Assembly (NCBI GenBank): GCA_965203175.1
Contig: OZ241867.1
Location: 1,888,001-1,952,000, forward strand
Source: Candidatus Latescibacterota bacterium
GTDB taxonomy: Bacteria > Latescibacterota > UBA2968 > UBA8231
Reading direction: 5' to 3'
DNA: 64,000 nucleotides
A program made the translations under genes and the position numbers. Every line of letters starts with the position of its first letter. The first letter of the stretch is position 1. Below, in pieces: positions 13,885 to 53,336 of the stretch. The notes below the pieces were generated by a model. It did not search any database and had not been told where the DNA came from. It saw only the letters and a program-made list of their open reading frames with translations.

Positions 13885-15030
13885 GTGAAAATCACCGCCA
13901 TCACCCCCATCATCGCCCGCTTCGGCAACCGCCCCCGCGTCTTGGTCAAAGTCGAGACCGACGAGGGCATCACTGGCTGGGGCGAGACCTACTCCATCGG
14001 CCCCGACCTAGCCGTCGGTCCCACCGTCGATTACTGTTTTGAGCTAATCAAGGGCATCGACCCTCGGCGGATCGAGTTCATAATGATGAAGCTGCACCAG
14101 CAGTTCCGCTTTCCACCGGGCGGGATCGGCCTGTCGGCTATCTCCGGCATCGACCACGCGCTGTGGGACATCTCCGGTAAAGCCGCGGGCGTGCCGGTCT
14201 ATCAGCTTTTGGGCGGCCACGCCCGCGACCGGGTGCGCGTCTATCGCTCCATCGGCGGCCGCGACGGCAAAGAGGCCGCCGACCAAGCCCGGCGTCTGCA
14301 CGAGGAGTACGGCTTCACTGCCTTCAAAACCAGCCCCTATCGGCTCGACCCAGACGCCCATCGCTGGGGCTTAGTCTGCAAGACGTCAGCCAAATACTTC
14401 GAAGAATTGCGCGTTAGCTGTCCGGACGACTGGGAATTTGCCTTCGACCCGCACGCCAAGATCTTCGAGCCGATTCGCGCCTTGCAGCTAGCCAACGCCC
14501 TCGCGCCGTACGACCCCTTTTTCTACGAAGAGCCGCTGCGCCCCGAGCACATTCCAGCGTGGACCAGCCTCAAGTCGCAAATGCAGGTGCCGTTGGCCAC
14601 CGGCGAGAGCCTCTACGCCCGCTTTGAGTTCCTCGATCTAATCGCCAACCAAGGTGCCGACATCATCCAGCCCGACATCTGCGTCTGCGGCGGCCTGCTC
14701 GAAATGCGCAAGATCAACGCCATTGCCGAAGCCCACTACATCAGCATCGCTCCGCACAATCCCATGGGGCCGTTGGCGACGGCCGTCAACCTGCACTTCT
14801 GCGCCTCGGCACCCAACTTCAAAATCCTCGAATACCTCCTGCCGACTGAATCCGAGTGGAACGACTGGCTTGACGAACCCTATCTGCCCAAAGACGGCTA
14901 CCTAGAGCTGCGACCGGACCGGCCGGGACTAGGCGTCGAAGTCAACGAAGAAGCCATCACCGACAACGAATACATCCATTGGGAACGCTCCAGCCCGACG
15001 CGTCCCGACGGCTCGACCGGGTACATCTAA
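13885..15030 (+). CDS. Mandelate racemase/galactonate dehydratase-like enolase-superfamily enzyme
   Basis: GWGE, ALWDI.GK, DPH, EEP, TGE, IIQPD, APHN. GTG start at 13885. Confidence 0.85.
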   Translation: MKITAITPIIARFGNRPRVLVKVETDEGITGWGETYSIGPDLAVGPTVDYCFELIKGIDPRRIEFIMMKLHQQFRFPPGGIGLSAISGIDHALWDISGKAAGVPVYQLLGGHARDRVRVYRSIGGRDGKEAADQARRLHEEYGFTAFKTSPYRLDPDAHRWGLVCKTSAKYFEELRVSCPDDWEFAFDPHAKIFEPIRALQLANALAPYDPFFYEEPLRPEHIPAWTSLKSQMQVPLATGESLYARFEFLDLIANQGADIIQPDICVCGGLLEMRKINAIAEAHYISIAPHNPMGPLATAVNLHFCASAPNFKILEYLLPTESEWNDWLDEPYLPKDGYLELRPDRPGLGVEVNEEAITDNEYIHWERSSPTRPDGSTGYI

Positions 15031-15569
15031 TGCTCAGCCGCGACCACACCGCACTCGTCCTCATCGACATTCAGGGCAAGCTGGCCTCGCTGATGCACGA
15101 ACGCGAGGCGCTCTACCGCCAGCTACAGATTCTCGTCCAGGGCGCGCAGGTTCTCGGGTTGCCCATTCTATGGCTAGAGCAGTACCCCAAAGGGCTTGGC
15201 CCCACCATTTCCGAGGTCGCCGACCTGCTCTCCGACCAAGAACCACTGGCCAAGACCTGCTTTAGCGCCTGCGGCCTCAGCGCTTTCCAAACCCAACTGC
15301 GCCAGAGCGGTCGCCGCCAGATTCTCTTGGCCGGGATCGAAAGCCACATCTGCGTCTATCAGACTGCCCGCGATTTGCTGGATGCGGGCTACCACGTCGA
15401 AGTCGTCGCCGACGCCATCTCCTCGCGTACCGCCGAGAACAAGGAACTGGGGCTGCAAAAAATGGCGTCCGCTGGCGCGCAGATCACGGCGGTGGAAATG
15501 TGTCTATTTGAATTGCTGCAGGAGGCAGGGACGGCGGAGTTCAAGCAAATTGCGGCATTGGTAAAGTGA
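15030..15569 (+). CDS. Isochorismatase-family cysteine hydrolase
   Basis: IDIQ, EQYPKGLG, KTCFS, GIESHICV. ATG overlaps the upstream TAA. Confidence 0.88.
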   Translation: MLSRDHTALVLIDIQGKLASLMHEREALYRQLQILVQGAQVLGLPILWLEQYPKGLGPTISEVADLLSDQEPLAKTCFSACGLSAFQTQLRQSGRRQILLAGIESHICVYQTARDLLDAGYHVEVVADAISSRTAENKELGLQKMASAGAQITAVEMCLFELLQEAGTAEFKQIAALVK

Positions 15570-15728
15570 GGGGTGTTGTTACCTCTGAGGAACAACGTCG
15601 CTTCCACAAGGCAACAGCACGGCGCATACAGCACATAACGCTACCAGAGGGAACGGGCATCTGCCAAGCATGGCCTACCTTTTGCTTATAGGGGGAAGTG
15701 CTTACATTTATCCAGAGAGGACCTTCTC

Positions 15729-16067
15729 ATGGCCGAGCAATCGTCCAATCCCGTCCAACCCACTGAATCCACCCTCGCTCTGAGCTTCCTGCGCGAGGAT
15801 ATTCAGGACCTACGTCAAGACGTGCGCCAAATACACGAGCGCATCGATCAGACCAACGGGCGCATCGACACCCTGCGCACCGAAATGAGTGGCCGCATCG
15901 ACACCCTGCGTACCGAAGTGGGAGAGCGCATCGACCAAACCAACGGACGCATCGACAGCTTAGCCAAACAACTCGACTCGCGCTACGCGCGACTAATGGC
16001 CATGCTCATCGCCTGTACCAGCATCCTCGTCACCACCATGGGCGCAGCCGTCGCCGTGCTCAAGTGA
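15729..16067 (+). CDS. Small coiled-coil repeat protein with C-terminal transmembrane helix
   Basis: RID-anchored 7- and 11-residue repeats, hydrophobic C-terminus, GAGAGGA RBS. Confidence 0.75.
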   Translation: MAEQSSNPVQPTESTLALSFLREDIQDLRQDVRQIHERIDQTNGRIDTLRTEMSGRIDTLRTEVGERIDQTNGRIDSLAKQLDSRYARLMAMLIACTSILVTTMGAAVAVLK

Positions 16068-16125
16068 CGCCCTAAACTCGCTCCGGAAACCGCTCCCGGT
16101 ACTCTCGATCAAATTCTTCGCTGCC
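16046..16125. repeat. 80-bp direct repeat, copy 1 (junction of two convergent gene ends)
   Basis: 77/80 identical to 16416..16495 by manual alignment. Confidence 0.95.
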
Positions 16126-16139
16126 TATAGGAGCCAAAG

Positions 16140-16349
16140 ATGGCTAAAATTATATCTTCTCGAGAGCAATCATCGTTTGAAGTTATCGTGGAAGCCGAAA
16201 CCCTGAGCGAGGCAATAAAAGAAGCTGCGTCATTAGCAGATGATGTGAAGACGCATGGATATGTAATTTTCCAAGTAGAGGAAAATTTTTTCGGAAACAC
16301 CGACGATACTCGGCAATGGCGTCTCAAGTGGTACGGAAAGGAACGCTAG
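16140..16349 (+). CDS. Small hypothetical protein (69 aa) on an AT-richer insert
   Basis: AGGAG RBS upstream, fills most of the 290-bp unique segment between the direct repeats. Confidence 0.6.
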   Translation: MAKIISSREQSSFEVIVEAETLSEAIKEAASLADDVKTHGYVIFQVEENFFGNTDDTRQWRLKWYGKER

Positions 16350-16415
16350 TGGGTGCCCCAAAAACAAGCCTTATATTTCAAACACAACCACTACCCTATT
16401 ATCTTTCTCGCCCTT

Positions 16416-16495
16416 AGCCGTCGCCGTGCTCAAGTGACGCCCTAAACTCGCTCCGGGAACCGCTCCCGATACTCCCGATCAAATTCTTCGCTGCC
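16416..16495. repeat. 80-bp direct repeat, copy 2
   Basis: Matches 16046..16125 and contains the stop and final codons of 16442..17683. Confidence 0.95.
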
Positions 16496-17683
16496 GTCGT
16501 CGAGCCGCACCTCTAGCTCCATCCCCGGTAAGAAGCCCGTCAGCTTGCCAGCGGTGAAATCGCCCCGATACCCTCCGCCCGGTGCCCACAACTCCCGGCC
16601 ATCGGGCCAGCGCACGGCGTGTATTTGGCGCACCGGCACTTTCGCAAAATCCGGCTCGACGCGCAGGCGCTCCACGGCATCCCAGTCCAACTCGACCCCC
16701 AAGCCTGGAGCCTCCGGCACCCGCAAATGCCCGCCCTCCACGGCAAACTCCTGCACCAAGACGTGCGAATAAATGTTGACGCAGGGAATCGCCGGCCAGC
16801 GCGCTTCCTTTAGCACCGCCCCCAAATGCGCCGCAAAGGTTGCTGTCAGGCCGGTGCCGACCATCTGCAACCAGAACGGCATTTGCGCCCGCGCGGCCAA
16901 GTTGCCGTCGCTCAAGACGCGGCTTACCCCACCGCCGATGACAAACCCGTCGCACACGCCCTCGCGAATCGCCGTCATGGGCGGCGGCTGGCCTATGTGC
17001 ATGGCAATTGGACATTGGATCTTGTGCCGCAGGAGTTTGTTGCCCTCCACGTCGTCTTGGGGAATCGGCGACTCGACGATGGCGAGACAGGCATTGTCCC
17101 GCTCTAAGCGCGCAATGAGCGGAGCGGCTTGGTCAACCCCCAGCAACATGGTGTTGAAGTCGGCGTCCAGCTTGAAGTGCTGAGAAGTGGCCTCAGCCAC
17201 GGCTTGCAACTGCGCCGCAATGTCGTACCAAGGCCGCGCCTTGACCTTCATGGTAGTAAAACCATGCGCCTCGGCCGCACGGGCTTCAGCCGCCCACGCT
17301 GCGGGCGGCATGCTTTGCGCCCACCAAGAAACCGGGCAGGCGTCGCGGTGCTGCGGCCCCATCAGCCGGTGGCAGGGTACGCCTAAGTGCTTGCCAGCCG
17401 CGTCGAAAAGCGCCATCTGCAAGCCAGCTCCCAGCGAATCGTCCCACAGCACCTCGAACACATTCCGCCCGCGCACGCGGGCAAACTCCGCTTCGCGCGA
17501 GTGGCCCCACGTATATCCCTGAATCGTCTCGCCAATGCCGACAACGCCGCCCTCAGTCTCCACTTCGGTCAACTCGACGATAGACCAACCCGGCCCATAG
17601 ACTTCCATGGCGTCGGCGCAGCGCTCGTGGAACGGCACGTGTAGCACGGTCCGCACGACGTCTTTAACAACACAATAACTCAT
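16442..17683 (-). CDS. Mandelate racemase/muconate lactonizing enzyme family protein
   Basis: GIGE, MALFDAAGK, KVK, DFN, ESP motifs. Confidence 0.8.
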   Translation of the reverse strand: MSYCVVKDVVRTVLHVPFHERCADAMEVYGPGWSIVELTEVETEGGVVGIGETIQGYTWGHSREAEFARVRGRNVFEVLWDDSLGAGLQMALFDAAGKHLGVPCHRLMGPQHRDACPVSWWAQSMPPAAWAAEARAAEAHGFTTMKVKARPWYDIAAQLQAVAEATSQHFKLDADFNTMLLGVDQAAPLIARLERDNACLAIVESPIPQDDVEGNKLLRHKIQCPIAMHIGQPPPMTAIREGVCDGFVIGGGVSRVLSDGNLAARAQMPFWLQMVGTGLTATFAAHLGAVLKEARWPAIPCVNIYSHVLVQEFAVEGGHLRVPEAPGLGVELDWDAVERLRVEPDFAKVPVRQIHAVRWPDGRELWAPGGGYRGDFTAGKLTGFLPGMELEVRLDDGSEEFDREYRERFPERV

Positions 17684-41435: not shown

Positions 41436-42158
41436 CTAGGCAAAGGGAAAGGTGCCGTCGTACCCCCTAGGCCGCGACACGTGCCAGACGCCCTCGTGCA
41501 TGGGCGTCATCTGGTAGTGGCACACCACATTGCTGCGTTCCATATCGTCGCGCTCTTTGGCTCCTTGGTGCGGTATGTGGCTCAAAAAGACGACGCAGTC
41601 GCCCGCCTTGGGGTAGAGGACGACGTGCTCCTGGGCGTCACACCAAGCCGCGAATTTGGGGCGGTCCTTGGGGTAGAGATGGGGAGGCTCCTGCAAATGG
41701 CCGTTTTTGACGTATTTGAGGTGGCCGTCTCCCGGCCCGTTGTCCTGCAAGTAATAGGTCGTATTGACTCCTACGGGCTGGGCCGCCAAGCGGTATTGCT
41801 CGACTTGCCGCTTTTCTTCCCAATAGCCGTAGAAATCCATGTGCCACTCCTGTAGGTACGGCCCCGGATTGATGTGCGCCCGCAGGCTGCGTAGCTGGCA
41901 TTGCTTGCCCATCATGCCCTCCAAATAAGGACGCACGCTCGGATGGCCTACCAACGGGGCGAAGGTCTCAGGCTCGCGGTCCAAGAGCGAATCGAACCAC
42001 ATATTGCCCACGGCATTCAAGCCTTCCTCCCAACCCATTTCGCGCGCGTAGTCCACCCGCTGCCGCACCAATTCCGTCTCTTGGGGACTCAAGGCCCCTT
42101 CGATCAAGACATAGCCGTCGCGCTCCAACTGGTCTAGTTTATTCGCCACATCCTGCAT
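41436..42158 (-). CDS. PhyH-family Fe(II)/2OG dioxygenase
   Basis: RDGYVLIE, WHMD, AGDCVVF, PHQG...R. Start at ATG 42158. Confidence 0.82.
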   Translation of the reverse strand: MQDVANKLDQLERDGYVLIEGALSPQETELVRQRVDYAREMGWEEGLNAVGNMWFDSLLDREPETFAPLVGHPSVRPYLEGMMGKQCQLRSLRAHINPGPYLQEWHMDFYGYWEEKRQVEQYRLAAQPVGVNTTYYLQDNGPGDGHLKYVKNGHLQEPPHLYPKDRPKFAAWCDAQEHVVLYPKAGDCVVFLSHIPHQGAKERDDMERSNVVCHYQMTPMHEGVWHVSRPRGYDGTFPFA

Positions 42159-42651
42159 TATTTCCATTCTCCTCTTCCTGTGGGTCGGCACTATCCTCGC
42201 CCGCTTCGACGGTGGATTTGTCGAGGGTGGTCAAGGCACCTTCCCAAGGGTTAATGACGTCAACGTCTATATCTGCGAAGTCCCCGACGTTCCGCGTCGC
42301 AACAGAGAGATCATGAACTTTGGCTGTCCCGGCGATCAGCGCATCTCCCAAGTCCAGCACGCGACCACAGCGATGCGCCTGCGCCCGGAATTGGGCCGCC
42401 CGCTCTGCCCCGGTCCTCTCCAAGGGCAAGATGCGATCCTCATACGCCGCAATGAACTCTGACAGCACCGACCGCAACCCGTCGCGACGTTGTCCCGGCG
42501 GCAGCAGTTGCAAGCCGAATTCCAACTCATGCAACACTAGCGCGGATAACCACAAGTCGTCTTGTTCGGTCAGGAATGCGACAACCCGCTGATTGGGCGC
42601 GTCTTTCGTCAACTCCGAGACCACATTGGTGTCTAGCAGAAACCCGCTCAC
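42139..42651 (-). CDS. vapC: VapC PIN-domain toxin with C-terminal read-through tail
   Basis: LLDTNVVSE, EL..G, DALIAGTA, ATRN..DF, INPW. Confidence 0.9.
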   Translation of the reverse strand: MSGFLLDTNVVSELTKDAPNQRVVAFLTEQDDLWLSALVLHELEFGLQLLPPGQRRDGLRSVLSEFIAAYEDRILPLERTGAERAAQFRAQAHRCGRVLDLGDALIAGTAKVHDLSVATRNVGDFADIDVDVINPWEGALTTLDKSTVEAGEDSADPQEEENGNNAGCGE

Positions 42652-51268: not shown

Positions 51269-52147
51269 GTGGAGTCTATTCTGTTGGATCTGCACATCGC
51301 TGTCGGAGTGACCGTTTTACTGGCCATCGTCTTTTTGCTCAACTTCCTGTCCAGTCGTCGTCGTTTGGGCTGGCTTCACCTCTTCTGGCGCACGGTCGGT
51401 ATCGGCATGCTCGTCCTGCTAGTGGCCTTGGTGTCGCTCCCGGAAATTACGGCCAGCGCACAGGTAGCCCCATCGGACCCGGGCGCGTCCCAAGATAGTA
51501 GCGTGGCCACTGATCCGGCGATCTCTAGGCTGTCCAATCTGCCCACCGCTATGAATATGGGCGACGCCGACCGCGTGAGACAGCTAACCAAAGAAGGCCG
51601 ATGGCACATAATCGAGGGAGATAGCGCCGATCTTTTCGACGGCGAAACTCTGAAGGGGTGGTGGGCGCTATCCGACCAGTGGACGGTTCAGGATGGACAG
51701 ATCATATGCCCTACCTCCGAGCGAATACATTTCGCGATCTCGGAAATCGTCATCGACGAGCCGTTTCAACTCCGCTACGAGGTATCCCCCCTAGAGCGGT
51801 CACACGGAGACGGCAAGATGGTGGGGTTCGTGGATGCCGCCGGTTACAACATGCTAGTCGCCCTCGACGACGACGAGCCGCATACGATACAGATAGACAG
51901 CGGACGCAAATTCTTCGATGAGTCCGGAATTTACGGCCCTTGGCAGCGGGAAGTAGCTGCCGACCTCCAGATGCAGATTGGAAAATGGTACGACGTCGTC
52001 TGCACGGTGGATGGGTCCAATTTCACTGTCTCCGCCGGCGACGTGGAACTGAGCCATCCCTTTGAACCGGAGTTTCCGGTCTTCATCTGGCTCGAGGTCC
52101 AGCGCACGGGTGCAAAGTATCGAGGACTGCGGATTTCGAAACTGTAA
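51269..52147 (+). CDS. Membrane-anchored protein with DUF1080/ConA-like beta-sandwich domain
   Basis: Two N-terminal hydrophobic helices, LFDGETLKGW..W.VQDG.I motif. GTG start after AAGGAG. Confidence 0.6.
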   Translation: MESILLDLHIAVGVTVLLAIVFLLNFLSSRRRLGWLHLFWRTVGIGMLVLLVALVSLPEITASAQVAPSDPGASQDSSVATDPAISRLSNLPTAMNMGDADRVRQLTKEGRWHIIEGDSADLFDGETLKGWWALSDQWTVQDGQIICPTSERIHFAISEIVIDEPFQLRYEVSPLERSHGDGKMVGFVDAAGYNMLVALDDDEPHTIQIDSGRKFFDESGIYGPWQREVAADLQMQIGKWYDVVCTVDGSNFTVSAGDVELSHPFEPEFPVFIWLEVQRTGAKYRGLRISKL

Positions 52148-52157
52148 GGAGATCGCT

Positions 52158-53336
52158 ATGACTACTCAGGTCATGCCCCTGAACATGGCCGACATGAGCG
52201 ACGAGAAGTTGGCAGACTTCTTCTTCGCCAAGGCCCTTACAGATGATGAACCAGAGGGCGAACCGCCCACGATTCCCAAGGAGAGATGGCGGCTAACTCC
52301 CACCGAGCTCGAGTTCATTCGGGCCGCGGCCTCGCCAGCGGAGCGCCAGCGAAAAGGTGGACGTACTATGGTCGACAGGTGGGCCGGGATTTGCGACATC
52401 GGCCACATGGCCGAATTGGTGCGGCGGGAACCTGCCTTACTGCAATCGGTGGGACCTCTACTCATCCGCGCCACGGTTGCAATGCGAGGATGCGCCCCAT
52501 CGACCAAGTTTCTGCTAGACCACGGCGTCCCAATGCTCGTCTCCGAGACGGGCTACAACTGTCTACACGAGGCCGCTTGGACCGGGACGTGCACCGAGAA
52601 TCTCCGCCATGTCTTCGAGTCCGGTGCCGCCGACGCTGCTGGGGTCTCGATCCTCAAACCCCACACGGGGTGGCCGGACAATATCTCACTCCTGTATTGG
52701 GCGGCAGCATCCCGCAACGGCGCAGACCTGACAAAGCTTTTGTTGCAATATGGTGCCGACCCGGAAGTGAAATTCAAGGGAAATGGCGAGCGCGGAAATA
52801 CCGCCCTGCAGGAGGCGGTTGCCCCCGGTGGCTCCGAATGGATTCGCGGGAAGCGCCAGACGGCACGCGTACTGATCGAGTGGGGCGCGCACTACGACGT
52901 GCTCTCCGCCTGCGCCTTGGACGACCTCGATCGCGTCCGCGAATGTGCAGCAGACTTAGACCTAGCCTCGTTTGCGGGAGAAGCGAATATGACGCCCCTG
53001 CATTGGGCCGCCCGAGCCGGGTCGCTCGCCTGTGCGGAATGGCTGCTCAAACGCGGTGCCGACGTCAACGCTGTGACGACGAGCAAACGCACACCCCTCC
53101 ACCTAGTTGCCGAAAGAGGAGAGGTTGATTCCATCTGGTTGCTGAGCGACTACGGCGCAGACTTAAATGCCCAAGACACCAAGGGCCGGACCCCATTGCA
53201 TCGCGCGACCTATGAAGGCCAAGTGGACTCGGCAGAAGTACTCATTGTACTTGGCGCCAGTACTCGAGTCCAAGGGAAATCGGGCAAGAATCCACTGGAG
53301 GTGGCACGCCTGGATTGCAAGTACCTGCGGTCGTAG
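52158..53336 (+). CDS. Ankyrin repeat protein
   Basis: TPLHWAA..G, TPLHLVA..G, GRTPLHRA, GADVNA/GADLNA. Start at ATG 52158. Confidence 0.9.
   Translation: MTTQVMPLNMADMSDEKLADFFFAKALTDDEPEGEPPTIPKERWRLTPTELEFIRAAASPAERQRKGGRTMVDRWAGICDIGHMAELVRREPALLQSVGPLLIRATVAMRGCAPSTKFLLDHGVPMLVSETGYNCLHEAAWTGTCTENLRHVFESGAADAAGVSILKPHTGWPDNISLLYWAAASRNGADLTKLLLQYGADPEVKFKGNGERGNTALQEAVAPGGSEWIRGKRQTARVLIEWGAHYDVLSACALDDLDRVRECAADLDLASFAGEANMTPLHWAARAGSLACAEWLLKRGADVNAVTTSKRTPLHLVAERGEVDSIWLLSDYGADLNAQDTKGRTPLHRATYEGQVDSAEVLIVLGASTRVQGKSGKNPLEVARLDCKYLRS

Follow-up and report, generated by a model that had tools for sequence, protein, structure and literature searches.

A duplicated convergent gene junction in Candidatus Latescibacterota: a probable scar of homology-driven insertion-duplication

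The subject of this analysis is an 80-nt direct repeat in the genome of Candidatus Latescibacterota bacterium (the source genome, G000; contig OZ241867.1). It lies in a stretch of 64,000 nt at 1.89-1.95 Mb, which is referred to here as the window. The repeat duplicates the junction between two convergent genes, one encoding a small coiled-coil protein and the other an enolase-family protein, and its two copies enclose a 290-nt cargo with a single 69-aa orphan gene (the small gene). This arrangement is probably the scar of a homology-driven insertion-duplication between two allelic layouts of the junction, in which either a recircularised fragment integrated by single crossover or one-sided homologous recombination took place. 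The junction itself, with its closely spaced stop codons, is a hot spot of gene gain and loss, and a single genus preserves it in empty, occupied, and differently occupied states. The locus would thereby provide a clean natural record of accessory and defence gene addition without a mobile element, in which neither of the tight neighbours was damaged.

The Duplicated Junction

The repeat finder reported a single two-copy family (16046-16125 and 16416-16495), whose copies are 80 nt each, 96% identical, and 370 nt apart from start to start. Direct comparison of the two sequences gives 77 identical positions out of 80. Repeat positions are numbered 1-80 from 16046 in copy 1 and from 16416 in copy 2. 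The first 22 nt of the repeat are the last 22 nt of the coiled-coil gene, with its TGA stop codon at repeat positions 20-22. The TAG stop codon of the enolase-family gene occupies positions 27-29, so the stop codons of the two convergent genes are only 4 nt apart and both lie inside each copy. The TAG of copy 1 (16072-16074, minus strand) does not terminate any ORF of 40 aa or more.

The copies differ at repeat positions 42, 54, and 60 (window 16087/16457, 16099/16469, and 16105/16475). In the enolase frame, each difference is a transition in the third position of a codon, and none changes the amino acid (F/F, Y/Y, and R/R). The 290 nt between the copies have a G+C content of 0.43, compared with 0.62 in the flanks, and the start codon of the small gene within them is preceded by an AGGAG motif. 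A preliminary description of this DNA had reported the near-identical copies spanning both stop codons, the exclusively synonymous mismatches, and an AT-richer segment carrying a 69-aa ORF with a ribosome-binding site; the repeat finder and the sequence itself bear out all of these points. The coordinates of the features are collected in Table 1.

Table 1. Features at the duplicated junction, in window coordinates.
Feature	Position	Strand	Basis or remark
Coiled-coil gene, 112 aa, C-terminal hydrophobic segment	15729..16067	+	ORF and translation
Repeat copy 1: functional coiled-coil 3′ end, 4-nt spacer, non-functional last 17 codons and stop of the enolase-family gene	16046..16125		
Cargo, 290 nt, left-truncated copy of a ~340-nt unit	16126..16415	+	Alignment with 10 other copies; segment BLAST
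Orphan gene P0001, 69 aa	16140..16349	+	AGGAG at 16129-16133, 6 nt 5′ of ATG
Right inverted-repeat arm	16347..16395	.	Partner arm not in window
19-nt spacer, unit to repeat copy 2	16397..16415		
Repeat copy 2: orphan 22-nt coiled-coil 3′ end, 4-nt spacer, functional enolase-family 3′ end	16416..16495		
Enolase-superfamily (MR_MLE) gene, 413 aa	16442..17683	-	Pfam MR_MLE_C 2.2e-23

A search of Rfam over 15000-17500 returned nothing at E values up to 1, and a promoter and terminator scan over 15500-16700 found nothing. The product of the coiled-coil gene gives just weak coiled-coil matches in Pfam, NCBIfam, and PADLOC. Paralogues of this gene, 72-80% identical, are present in the source genome at C1:5124887-5125364 and C1:3123062-3123702, and the copy beside the junction is tandemly doubled in two congeners (G001, L015 758-1500; G023, L017 2086-3071).

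Layouts of the Junction across the Genus

Window positions 15600-17000 were compared with 24 plus 5 further congeners (29 in all), with the locus segmented for BLAST. Four public sequencing runs (X1, X2, X3, and X17) were examined as contigs, not reads, and rare variants drop out of contigs.

Empty sites, which consist of the coiled-coil gene, a single 80-nt junction, and the enolase gene, are present in 10 of the 29 congeners (G012, G014, G006, G020, G001, G013, G023, G005, G019, and G042), and the 80-nt repeat of the source genome is this single junction in duplicate, with a length sufficient for homologous exchange. The small gene is found at the junction in eight congeners (G022, G021, G010, G002, G011, G003, G009, and G008), and a 1.1-kb two-gene insert without the small gene in two (G004 and G007). 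Three genomes have the enolase gene with a different left neighbour (G043, G044, and G045), and six gave distant or partial matches only (G015, G016, G017, G018, G024, and G046). The preliminary description had predicted both an empty site with a single copy and other cargo at the same junction, and congeners supply both.

The two-gene insert encodes a 190-aa protein (SocA_Panacea, 3.6e-20) and an overlapping 125-aa protein. This toxin-antitoxin-like (SocA-like) pair lies between ~142-nt repeats of the enolase 3′ end in G004, G007, and G008, the last of which holds both the two-gene insert and the small gene. In G002, a 13-kb Dnd/Pbe defence island is located between 111-nt repeats, comprising the 80 nt and 31 more, and the small gene forms its right end. 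The products of the island are DndA-like, DndB, DndC-like, DndD-like, DndE, PbeA, PbeC-like, and GmrSD-like. In G008 (L021:2520-3200), the DNA that separates the small-gene unit from a displaced enolase 3′ fragment holds a 226-aa minus-strand ORF, a possible insertion sequence.

The right joint, in which the unit is followed by the 19-nt spacer and the repeat, is identical in all nine genomes with the small gene here, and it is the left side that varies. In G000 and G022, the coiled-coil gene and the 80-nt copy are joined to the middle of the unit. The coiled-coil gene of G002 is followed by a 111-nt copy and then the island. In G003, G021, and G010, the coiled-coil gene has its own TAA and its own downstream sequence, in which a G+C-rich hairpin and a T run are visible by eye, and the unit comes after it. 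The coiled-coil gene is missing from G011 and G009, where the unit follows the flank of an upstream isochorismatase gene. The cargo layout already includes the orphan last 22 nt of a coiled-coil gene without the long repeat. Since this right joint exists without the 80-nt repeat in six genomes (G021, G010, G003, G011, G009, and G008), the event in the source genome joined two pre-existing layouts.

The limits of the repeat differ from insert to insert: they are 1-80 in G000 and G022, 1-111 in G002, and ~34-36 to 95 nt past the repeat in G004, G007, and G008. In both G000 and G002, the repeat begins exactly where homology between the cargo and empty layouts starts (position 1). The 80-nt repeat of G000 ends 54 nt into the enolase gene and its cargo starts mid-unit, both of which are arbitrary points. 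A repeat that starts with the homology and otherwise has arbitrary ends is expected from the joining of a trimmed fragment, and not from a staggered cut or a fixed attachment site.

Allelic Differences between the Copies

Positions 42, 54, and 60 are all polymorphic among the functional enolase-family alleles of 18 other genomes, whose 51 coding positions in the repeat include 23 variable ones, 14 of which are third positions. G010, G011, and G007 have A-G-T, the copy 1 haplotype of the source genome, in their functional gene. The copies of G022 differ at positions 1, 45, 54, and 60, and each of these is a third position of whichever gene covers it. At position 60, G000 and G022 have the same difference (T in copy 1 and C in copy 2), both states of which are common functional alleles; copy 1 on an X3 contig likewise has an unchanged T. 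The states of position 54 are swapped between G000 and G022. Position 42 in G000 and position 45 in G022 are private to copy 2, which still codes, and at these private sites selection permits synonymous change only.

The chance that three random sites would all fall on enolase third positions is 0.008 for the 80 nt, a nominal value for a pattern chosen after the fact, and 0.033 within the 51 coding positions. When the differences are counted as events there are at least five, all at third positions, with P values of 0.0004 for random placement in the repeat and 0.004 within coding positions; the synonymous pattern is therefore real. Its sources are ordinary, namely change in a copy that still codes and the import of standing variants by recombination. 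The preliminary description had concluded that the extra copy diverged while it was still coding. Synonymous-only differences do not require this history for copy 1, as changes in copy 2 and recombinational imports yield the same pattern. When a gene end is compared with its dead copy, such differences alone are no evidence of a special mechanism.

The last 200 nt of the enolase-family gene exist as two sharply different allele types that are shuffled among species (window 16416-16700; 18 congeners). The 3′ end in the source genome is a mosaic, of type I to about position 130 and of type II beyond. In G002, the left copy belongs to type I at positions 97-111 and the gene itself to type II, so there the two copies come from different alleles. 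The cargo of G000 differs from that of G011 at 8 of 290 positions, versus 46 of 505 in the adjoining gene (Fisher p 0.0004), and G000 and G022 have the truncated joint in common with different cargo haplogroups. Recombination at the locus is evident.

Proposed Origin of the Repeat

Two layouts of the junction circulate in the genus. The empty layout consists of the coiled-coil gene, the junction, and the enolase gene, and the cargo layout of the small-gene unit, the 19-nt spacer, the last 22 nt of the coiled-coil gene, and the enolase gene. DNA of one layout may have entered a cell carrying the other, where one homologous exchange within the common junction and one non-homologous joint would have combined them. 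The likeliest route would be the trimming of a fragment at both ends, its circularisation, and its insertion through a RecA-mediated single crossover. The same product could come from a linear fragment by one-sided homologous recombination, or from a larger repeat-flanked insert like that of G002 by a later deletion. The homologous piece would thus end up twice, and both neighbour genes would stay whole. On the cargo side, the repeat limit marks the start of homology. The limit on the opposite side would be an arbitrary fragment end, as would the truncated start of the cargo on its left. The three differences between the copies are standing synonymous variants of the functional gene, which would have come through import of a foreign allele, later change in the coding copy, or further recombination. 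What the sequences show directly are the layouts with their empty sites, the differing repeat limits, the mosaic of alleles, and the lack of a recombinase. The order of events, the circle, the role of RecA, and the entry of DNA into the cell are the steps that we infer. ComEC and DprA domains are present in the source genome, which is weak evidence since most bacteria have them, as the controls indicate. As to end joining, a search of this genome for Ku (PF02735) found no match, a result that, according to the controls, carries little weight.

Insertion-duplication by single crossover (Campbell-type) is an already known route and not a new one. In Escherichia coli, linear DNA with homology at one end is mostly integrated after recircularisation, by a recA-dependent single crossover (PMC3240628; PLoS One 2011;6:e28876). 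There, 56 of 60 clones from conjugation carried a duplicated homologous gene end, with lengths of 109-950 bp in the 14 that were sequenced, and 4 of the 60 arose by homology-facilitated illegitimate recombination (HFIR) (PMC3240628). The present locus resembles the cases described there in several respects: foreign DNA with one-sided homology is flanked by a duplicated gene 3′ end, the length of the duplication varies with fragment trimming (109-950 bp there and 80, 111, and ~142 nt here), the target gene is whole, and no element-encoded recombinase takes part (PMC3240628). It differs in being a natural event in an uncultured Latescibacterota, with shorter homology and with a circle and RecA that are presumed (PMC3240628).

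HFIR has also been proposed as the source of orphan 3′ ends in type VI secretion system (T6SS) effector-immunity clusters and Rhs loci (PMC5361080; Sci Rep 2017;7:45133). The features common to those loci and to this junction are one homologous anchor with one non-homologous joint, displaced 3′-end scars (here the 22-nt coiled-coil and 54-nt enolase remnants), and the reuse of one locus by different cargo (PMC5361080). HFIR proper is different in that it replaces recipient DNA, in contrast to the duplication seen here, and in that its joints usually show 3-10 bp of microhomology (PMC3240628), of which there is none visible here. Because the joint in the source genome has no microhomology, the scar is filed under insertion-duplication in the broad sense and not under strict HFIR.

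Defence hot spots that lack an integrase are a known feature of intervals between core genes. The present locus is like them in having one conserved-gene junction with varying occupants (the Dnd/Pbe island, the SocA-like pair, or nothing). It differs in the long junction duplication that flanks each occupant and would record its splicing-in.

The preliminary description had proposed a homology-driven gain by way of an allele from a related strain. Standing polymorphisms, the mixed alleles of G002, and the E. coli precedent (PMC3240628) support this proposal in part. Several observations weigh against an origin by insertion-duplication between two layouts. Position 31 is an A in both copies of G000 and G022 and in no other aligned copy; the change is non-synonymous and makes the last residue V instead of A. 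This common A31 implies that the donor was a very close relative or that the copies were homogenised later, and for the source genome itself a foreign origin of one copy is unproven. Copy 1 of G000 and that of G022 (L005:1946-2025) differ at just 1 of 58 non-coding nt, against a pS of 0.20 in the adjoining gene (Poisson P 0.0001). Compared with the 4.5% in the non-coding tail of the cargo, this near-identity is not unusual (P 0.27); it fits homogenisation between the copies or repeated recombination, with constraint as another possible cause. There is no microhomology at the joint between the end of copy 1 and the start of the cargo, and neither a donor nor a circle nor an excision product was seen in the contigs, which, unlike reads, were the material examined.

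The preliminary description had also suggested a circle of roughly 370 bp, which is neither shown nor needed. In the contigs of the four runs, from which rare variants are lost, no joint skips 370 nt and none goes back by ~290-370 nt; direct integration of a 370-bp circle and deletion from a larger insert are not distinguishable. X1 has one joint that goes back by 320 nt (16064 to 15745, depth 2.1), which is consistent with a tandem coiled-coil gene and not with a cargo circle.

The Cargo Unit and Its Small Gene

The cargo had been described as a 290-bp mini-cassette, but it is not self-contained and is a left-truncated piece of a longer unit. In a survey of 31 genomes of the genus, the unit is present in 12, always as a single copy. 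Away from this junction, it occurs in the genomes G013, G006, and G041 as well as on two contigs from metagenomes; a metagenome scan for the small gene returned 2 loci only, both at another locus and both with a truncated right arm. Full copies of the unit end at constant bases though their flanks differ. Imperfect inverted repeats of ~48 nt bracket the small gene in G002, G011, G013, and G041 and do so partly in G003 and G008. In G000 and G022, the left arm and ~14 further nt are missing; the left arm was lost by a different deletion in G021 and G010 and is partly missing in G009 and G006. The 19-nt spacer is present in 9 of 9 unit copies at the junction and is absent from the empty sites and from the G013 copy at another locus.

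The full unit of G002 (L026:15042-15376) folds with its arms paired (-118.3 kcal/mol, z -5.97). No compensatory changes between the arms were found by eye in the alignment, and changes between genomes break pairs rather than compensate for them, so no conserved RNA structure is claimed. The arms around the small gene have two candidate readings, a relic of a mobile cassette and a long-range stem. A short target duplication of the unit was considered and rejected: G002 has a 6-nt match on both sides with a 1-nt offset, and this match is missing in G011, G013, G003, and G008. The source genome contains no second copy of the cargo or of its protein.

The small ORF is intact, at 210 nt, in all 12 genomes that carry it, with a pN/pS of 0.42 and with 11/10/21 variable columns at the first, second, and third codon positions. 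Its protein family comprises 31 protein clusters, all of them at least 81% identical, and has 3 representatives among 1.84 billion proteins, one of which is a diverged 78-aa form. Pfam (E up to 1), NCBIfam, and PADLOC give no family for the 69-aa protein, and the best score in a protein atlas search is 0.76, a lead at most. The structure model is of low confidence (predicted local distance difference test, pLDDT, 64.4). A fold search with this low-confidence model gave a best Z of 5.7 and included three dodecin entries (Z 5.1-5.5, rmsd 3.4-3.5, 60-61 residues aligned), but these scores are level with those of unrelated folds and inside the noise described for the tool, and Pfam Dodecin was unmatched; the protein was therefore given no fold.

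A 1.9-kb contig of X17, which is an RNA library (record 9), covers window 15500-17056 with a layout of the G021/G010 type. It spans both convergent genes and the small gene, with 82 different letters in place of 16066-16125, and may result from DNA carry-over.

Alternative Explanations

Duplication within one lineage, by replication slippage or unequal sister-chromosome exchange, would involve no foreign DNA, and the differences between the copies would have arisen later. This explanation is unlikely, even though the lineage-specific A31 in both copies of G000 and G022 agrees with it, as do at least two differences (42 in G000 and 45 in G022) that are private to the functional copy 2. It does not account for the exact match between the start of the repeat and the joint already present in the cargo layout, for the fusion of copy 1 to an internal point of the unit, or for the left copy of G002, whose allele type is not that of its gene. 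The T/C difference at position 60, which G000 and G022 have in common and both states of which are common functional alleles, also argues against this explanation.

The repeats could instead be attachment sites of a small integrative element without an integrase, a cis-mobilisable remnant that depends on a tyrosine recombinase from another locus for insertion and excision. Prophages whose target is a gene 3′ end bring a replacement for that end with them. In E. coli, e14 and phage 21 are inserted in icd between two copies of its 3′ end; most differences between these copies are synonymous, and icd remains functional. These elements leave repeats like those described here, different cargo has used the junction repeatedly, and the source genome has four PF00589 genes, which lie at 3.39-5.48 Mb, all more than 1.4 Mb from the window. 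A remnant of this type is nonetheless improbable. The e14 and phage 21 insertions depend on a phage integrase and a fixed attachment core, whereas at this junction the limits vary between events (1-80, 1-111, and ~34-36 to +95) and leave no core common to all of them. On its left, the cargo starts at a truncation within the unit and not at a conserved element end, and the right joint occurs without the long repeat in the six genomes named above.

The searches for recombinase genes likewise speak against such an element. Pfam searches of 52 ORFs of at least 90 aa in the window, together with both flanking genes, found no recombinase or transposase family, in agreement with the preliminary description. 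PF00239 has no match in the source genome. No recombinase family was found in the inserts scanned, which were represented by nine large ORFs of the 13-kb G002 island, the G004-type pair, and the 69-aa gene, with the 226-aa ORF of G008 not included.

A third explanation is that the small gene and its inverted repeats form a non-autonomous transposable cassette, similar to a miniature inverted-repeat transposable element (MITE) or a mobile insertion cassette (MIC), and that widely staggered cuts produced the 80-nt repeat as an unusually long target-site duplication. The ~48-nt arms of the full copies fit such a cassette, with the outer 21 nt perfectly complementary between the arm forms of G011 and G013. 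The constant unit ends beside three left flanks (G002, G011, and G013) and two right flanks, and the copies at other loci in three genomes and on the two metagenome contigs, point the same way. Transposition as the source of the 80-nt repeat is nevertheless very improbable: G000 and G022 have no left arm, the 80-nt copy abuts the truncation, and the 19-nt spacer stands between the right arm and the repeat. Full copies at the junction in G011 and G003 lack the 80-nt repeat, every one of the 12 carriers has a single copy, and no second copy of the arm occurs in the source genome at up to 4 mismatches. There is also no consistent short target duplication, and the observed arm changes break pairs with none that compensate.

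The remaining explanation, an assembly chimera of two strains, can be dismissed: several related strains do co-occur in the same samples, and a loose end in X1 before 16126 carries the full left arm of the unit, but the G000 assembly is one contig of 6.58 Mb, a second species-level genome (G022) has the same layout with both joints at identical bases, and public contigs from X2 (record 15, 16057-16445) and X3 (record 21, 15968-16349), the latter from a different study, bridge the joint between copy 1 and the cargo. The duplicated junction is thus no assembly artefact.

Repeat Pairs Elsewhere in the Source Genome

Isolated direct repeats of 40 nt or more that are less than 20 kb apart form 60 pairs in the source genome. 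In 12 pairs, one of which is the junction pair, the repeat overlaps the stop codon of a flanking ORF with a length of 100 aa or more. These 12 pairs, of 68-165 nt, are duplicated gene 3′ ends with 0.06-6.3 kb of cargo between them. The other 11 pairs have 34 coding differences, of which 12 are synonymous and 22 are not, and which are distributed as 15/7/12 over the three codon positions. Two of the ORFs involved (105 and 118 aa) are doubtful, and a hand count without them gives 8/6/12. This spread over codon positions means that there is no general synonymous-only rule; the refuting test named in the preliminary description largely goes against one.

Two of these loci follow the same three-state pattern as the junction, in which a site may be empty, may hold cargo with another left flank, or may hold cargo together with the repeat. 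At L050 (G000:C1:1827606-1829032), a convergent junction is repeated over 68 nt on either side of 1.29 kb of inserted DNA, which includes an MR_MLE gene; G001 has this site empty, and in five genomes the cargo occurs beside a different left flank. At L052 (G000:C1:2037735-2040158), the aspartyl-tRNA synthetase gene has its 3′ end duplicated over 101 nt around an Abi_C gene and a 317-aa gene, and G013 and G019 have the site empty. Further repeat-flanked inserts in the source genome carry DUF4365, NUDIX, and zeta-toxin-like genes. Among the cargo of its 12 repeat pairs are a zeta-toxin-like kinase, additional genes of the enolase family, and genes of abortive-infection and restriction-like types.

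It is conceivable, as a tentative extension, that recombinase-free insertion-duplication is a regular route of gene gain in this genus and not a rare accident. Tight convergent junctions would then be hot spots for defence and accessory genes, with contents swapped between species by homologous anchors alone. If so, the junction repeats would also permit clean loss of the cargo.

An identical direct copy of the 1160 nt at G000:C1:3555777-3556936 lies 10.6 kb further on. Each copy has a long ORF, and the two may be an insertion-sequence pair around a segment.

Other Genes in the Window

A PIN-domain gene at 42139-42651 (minus strand) is situated among several PhyH-family genes. The window also contains a gene for an ankyrin-repeat protein at 52062-53336 (plus strand).

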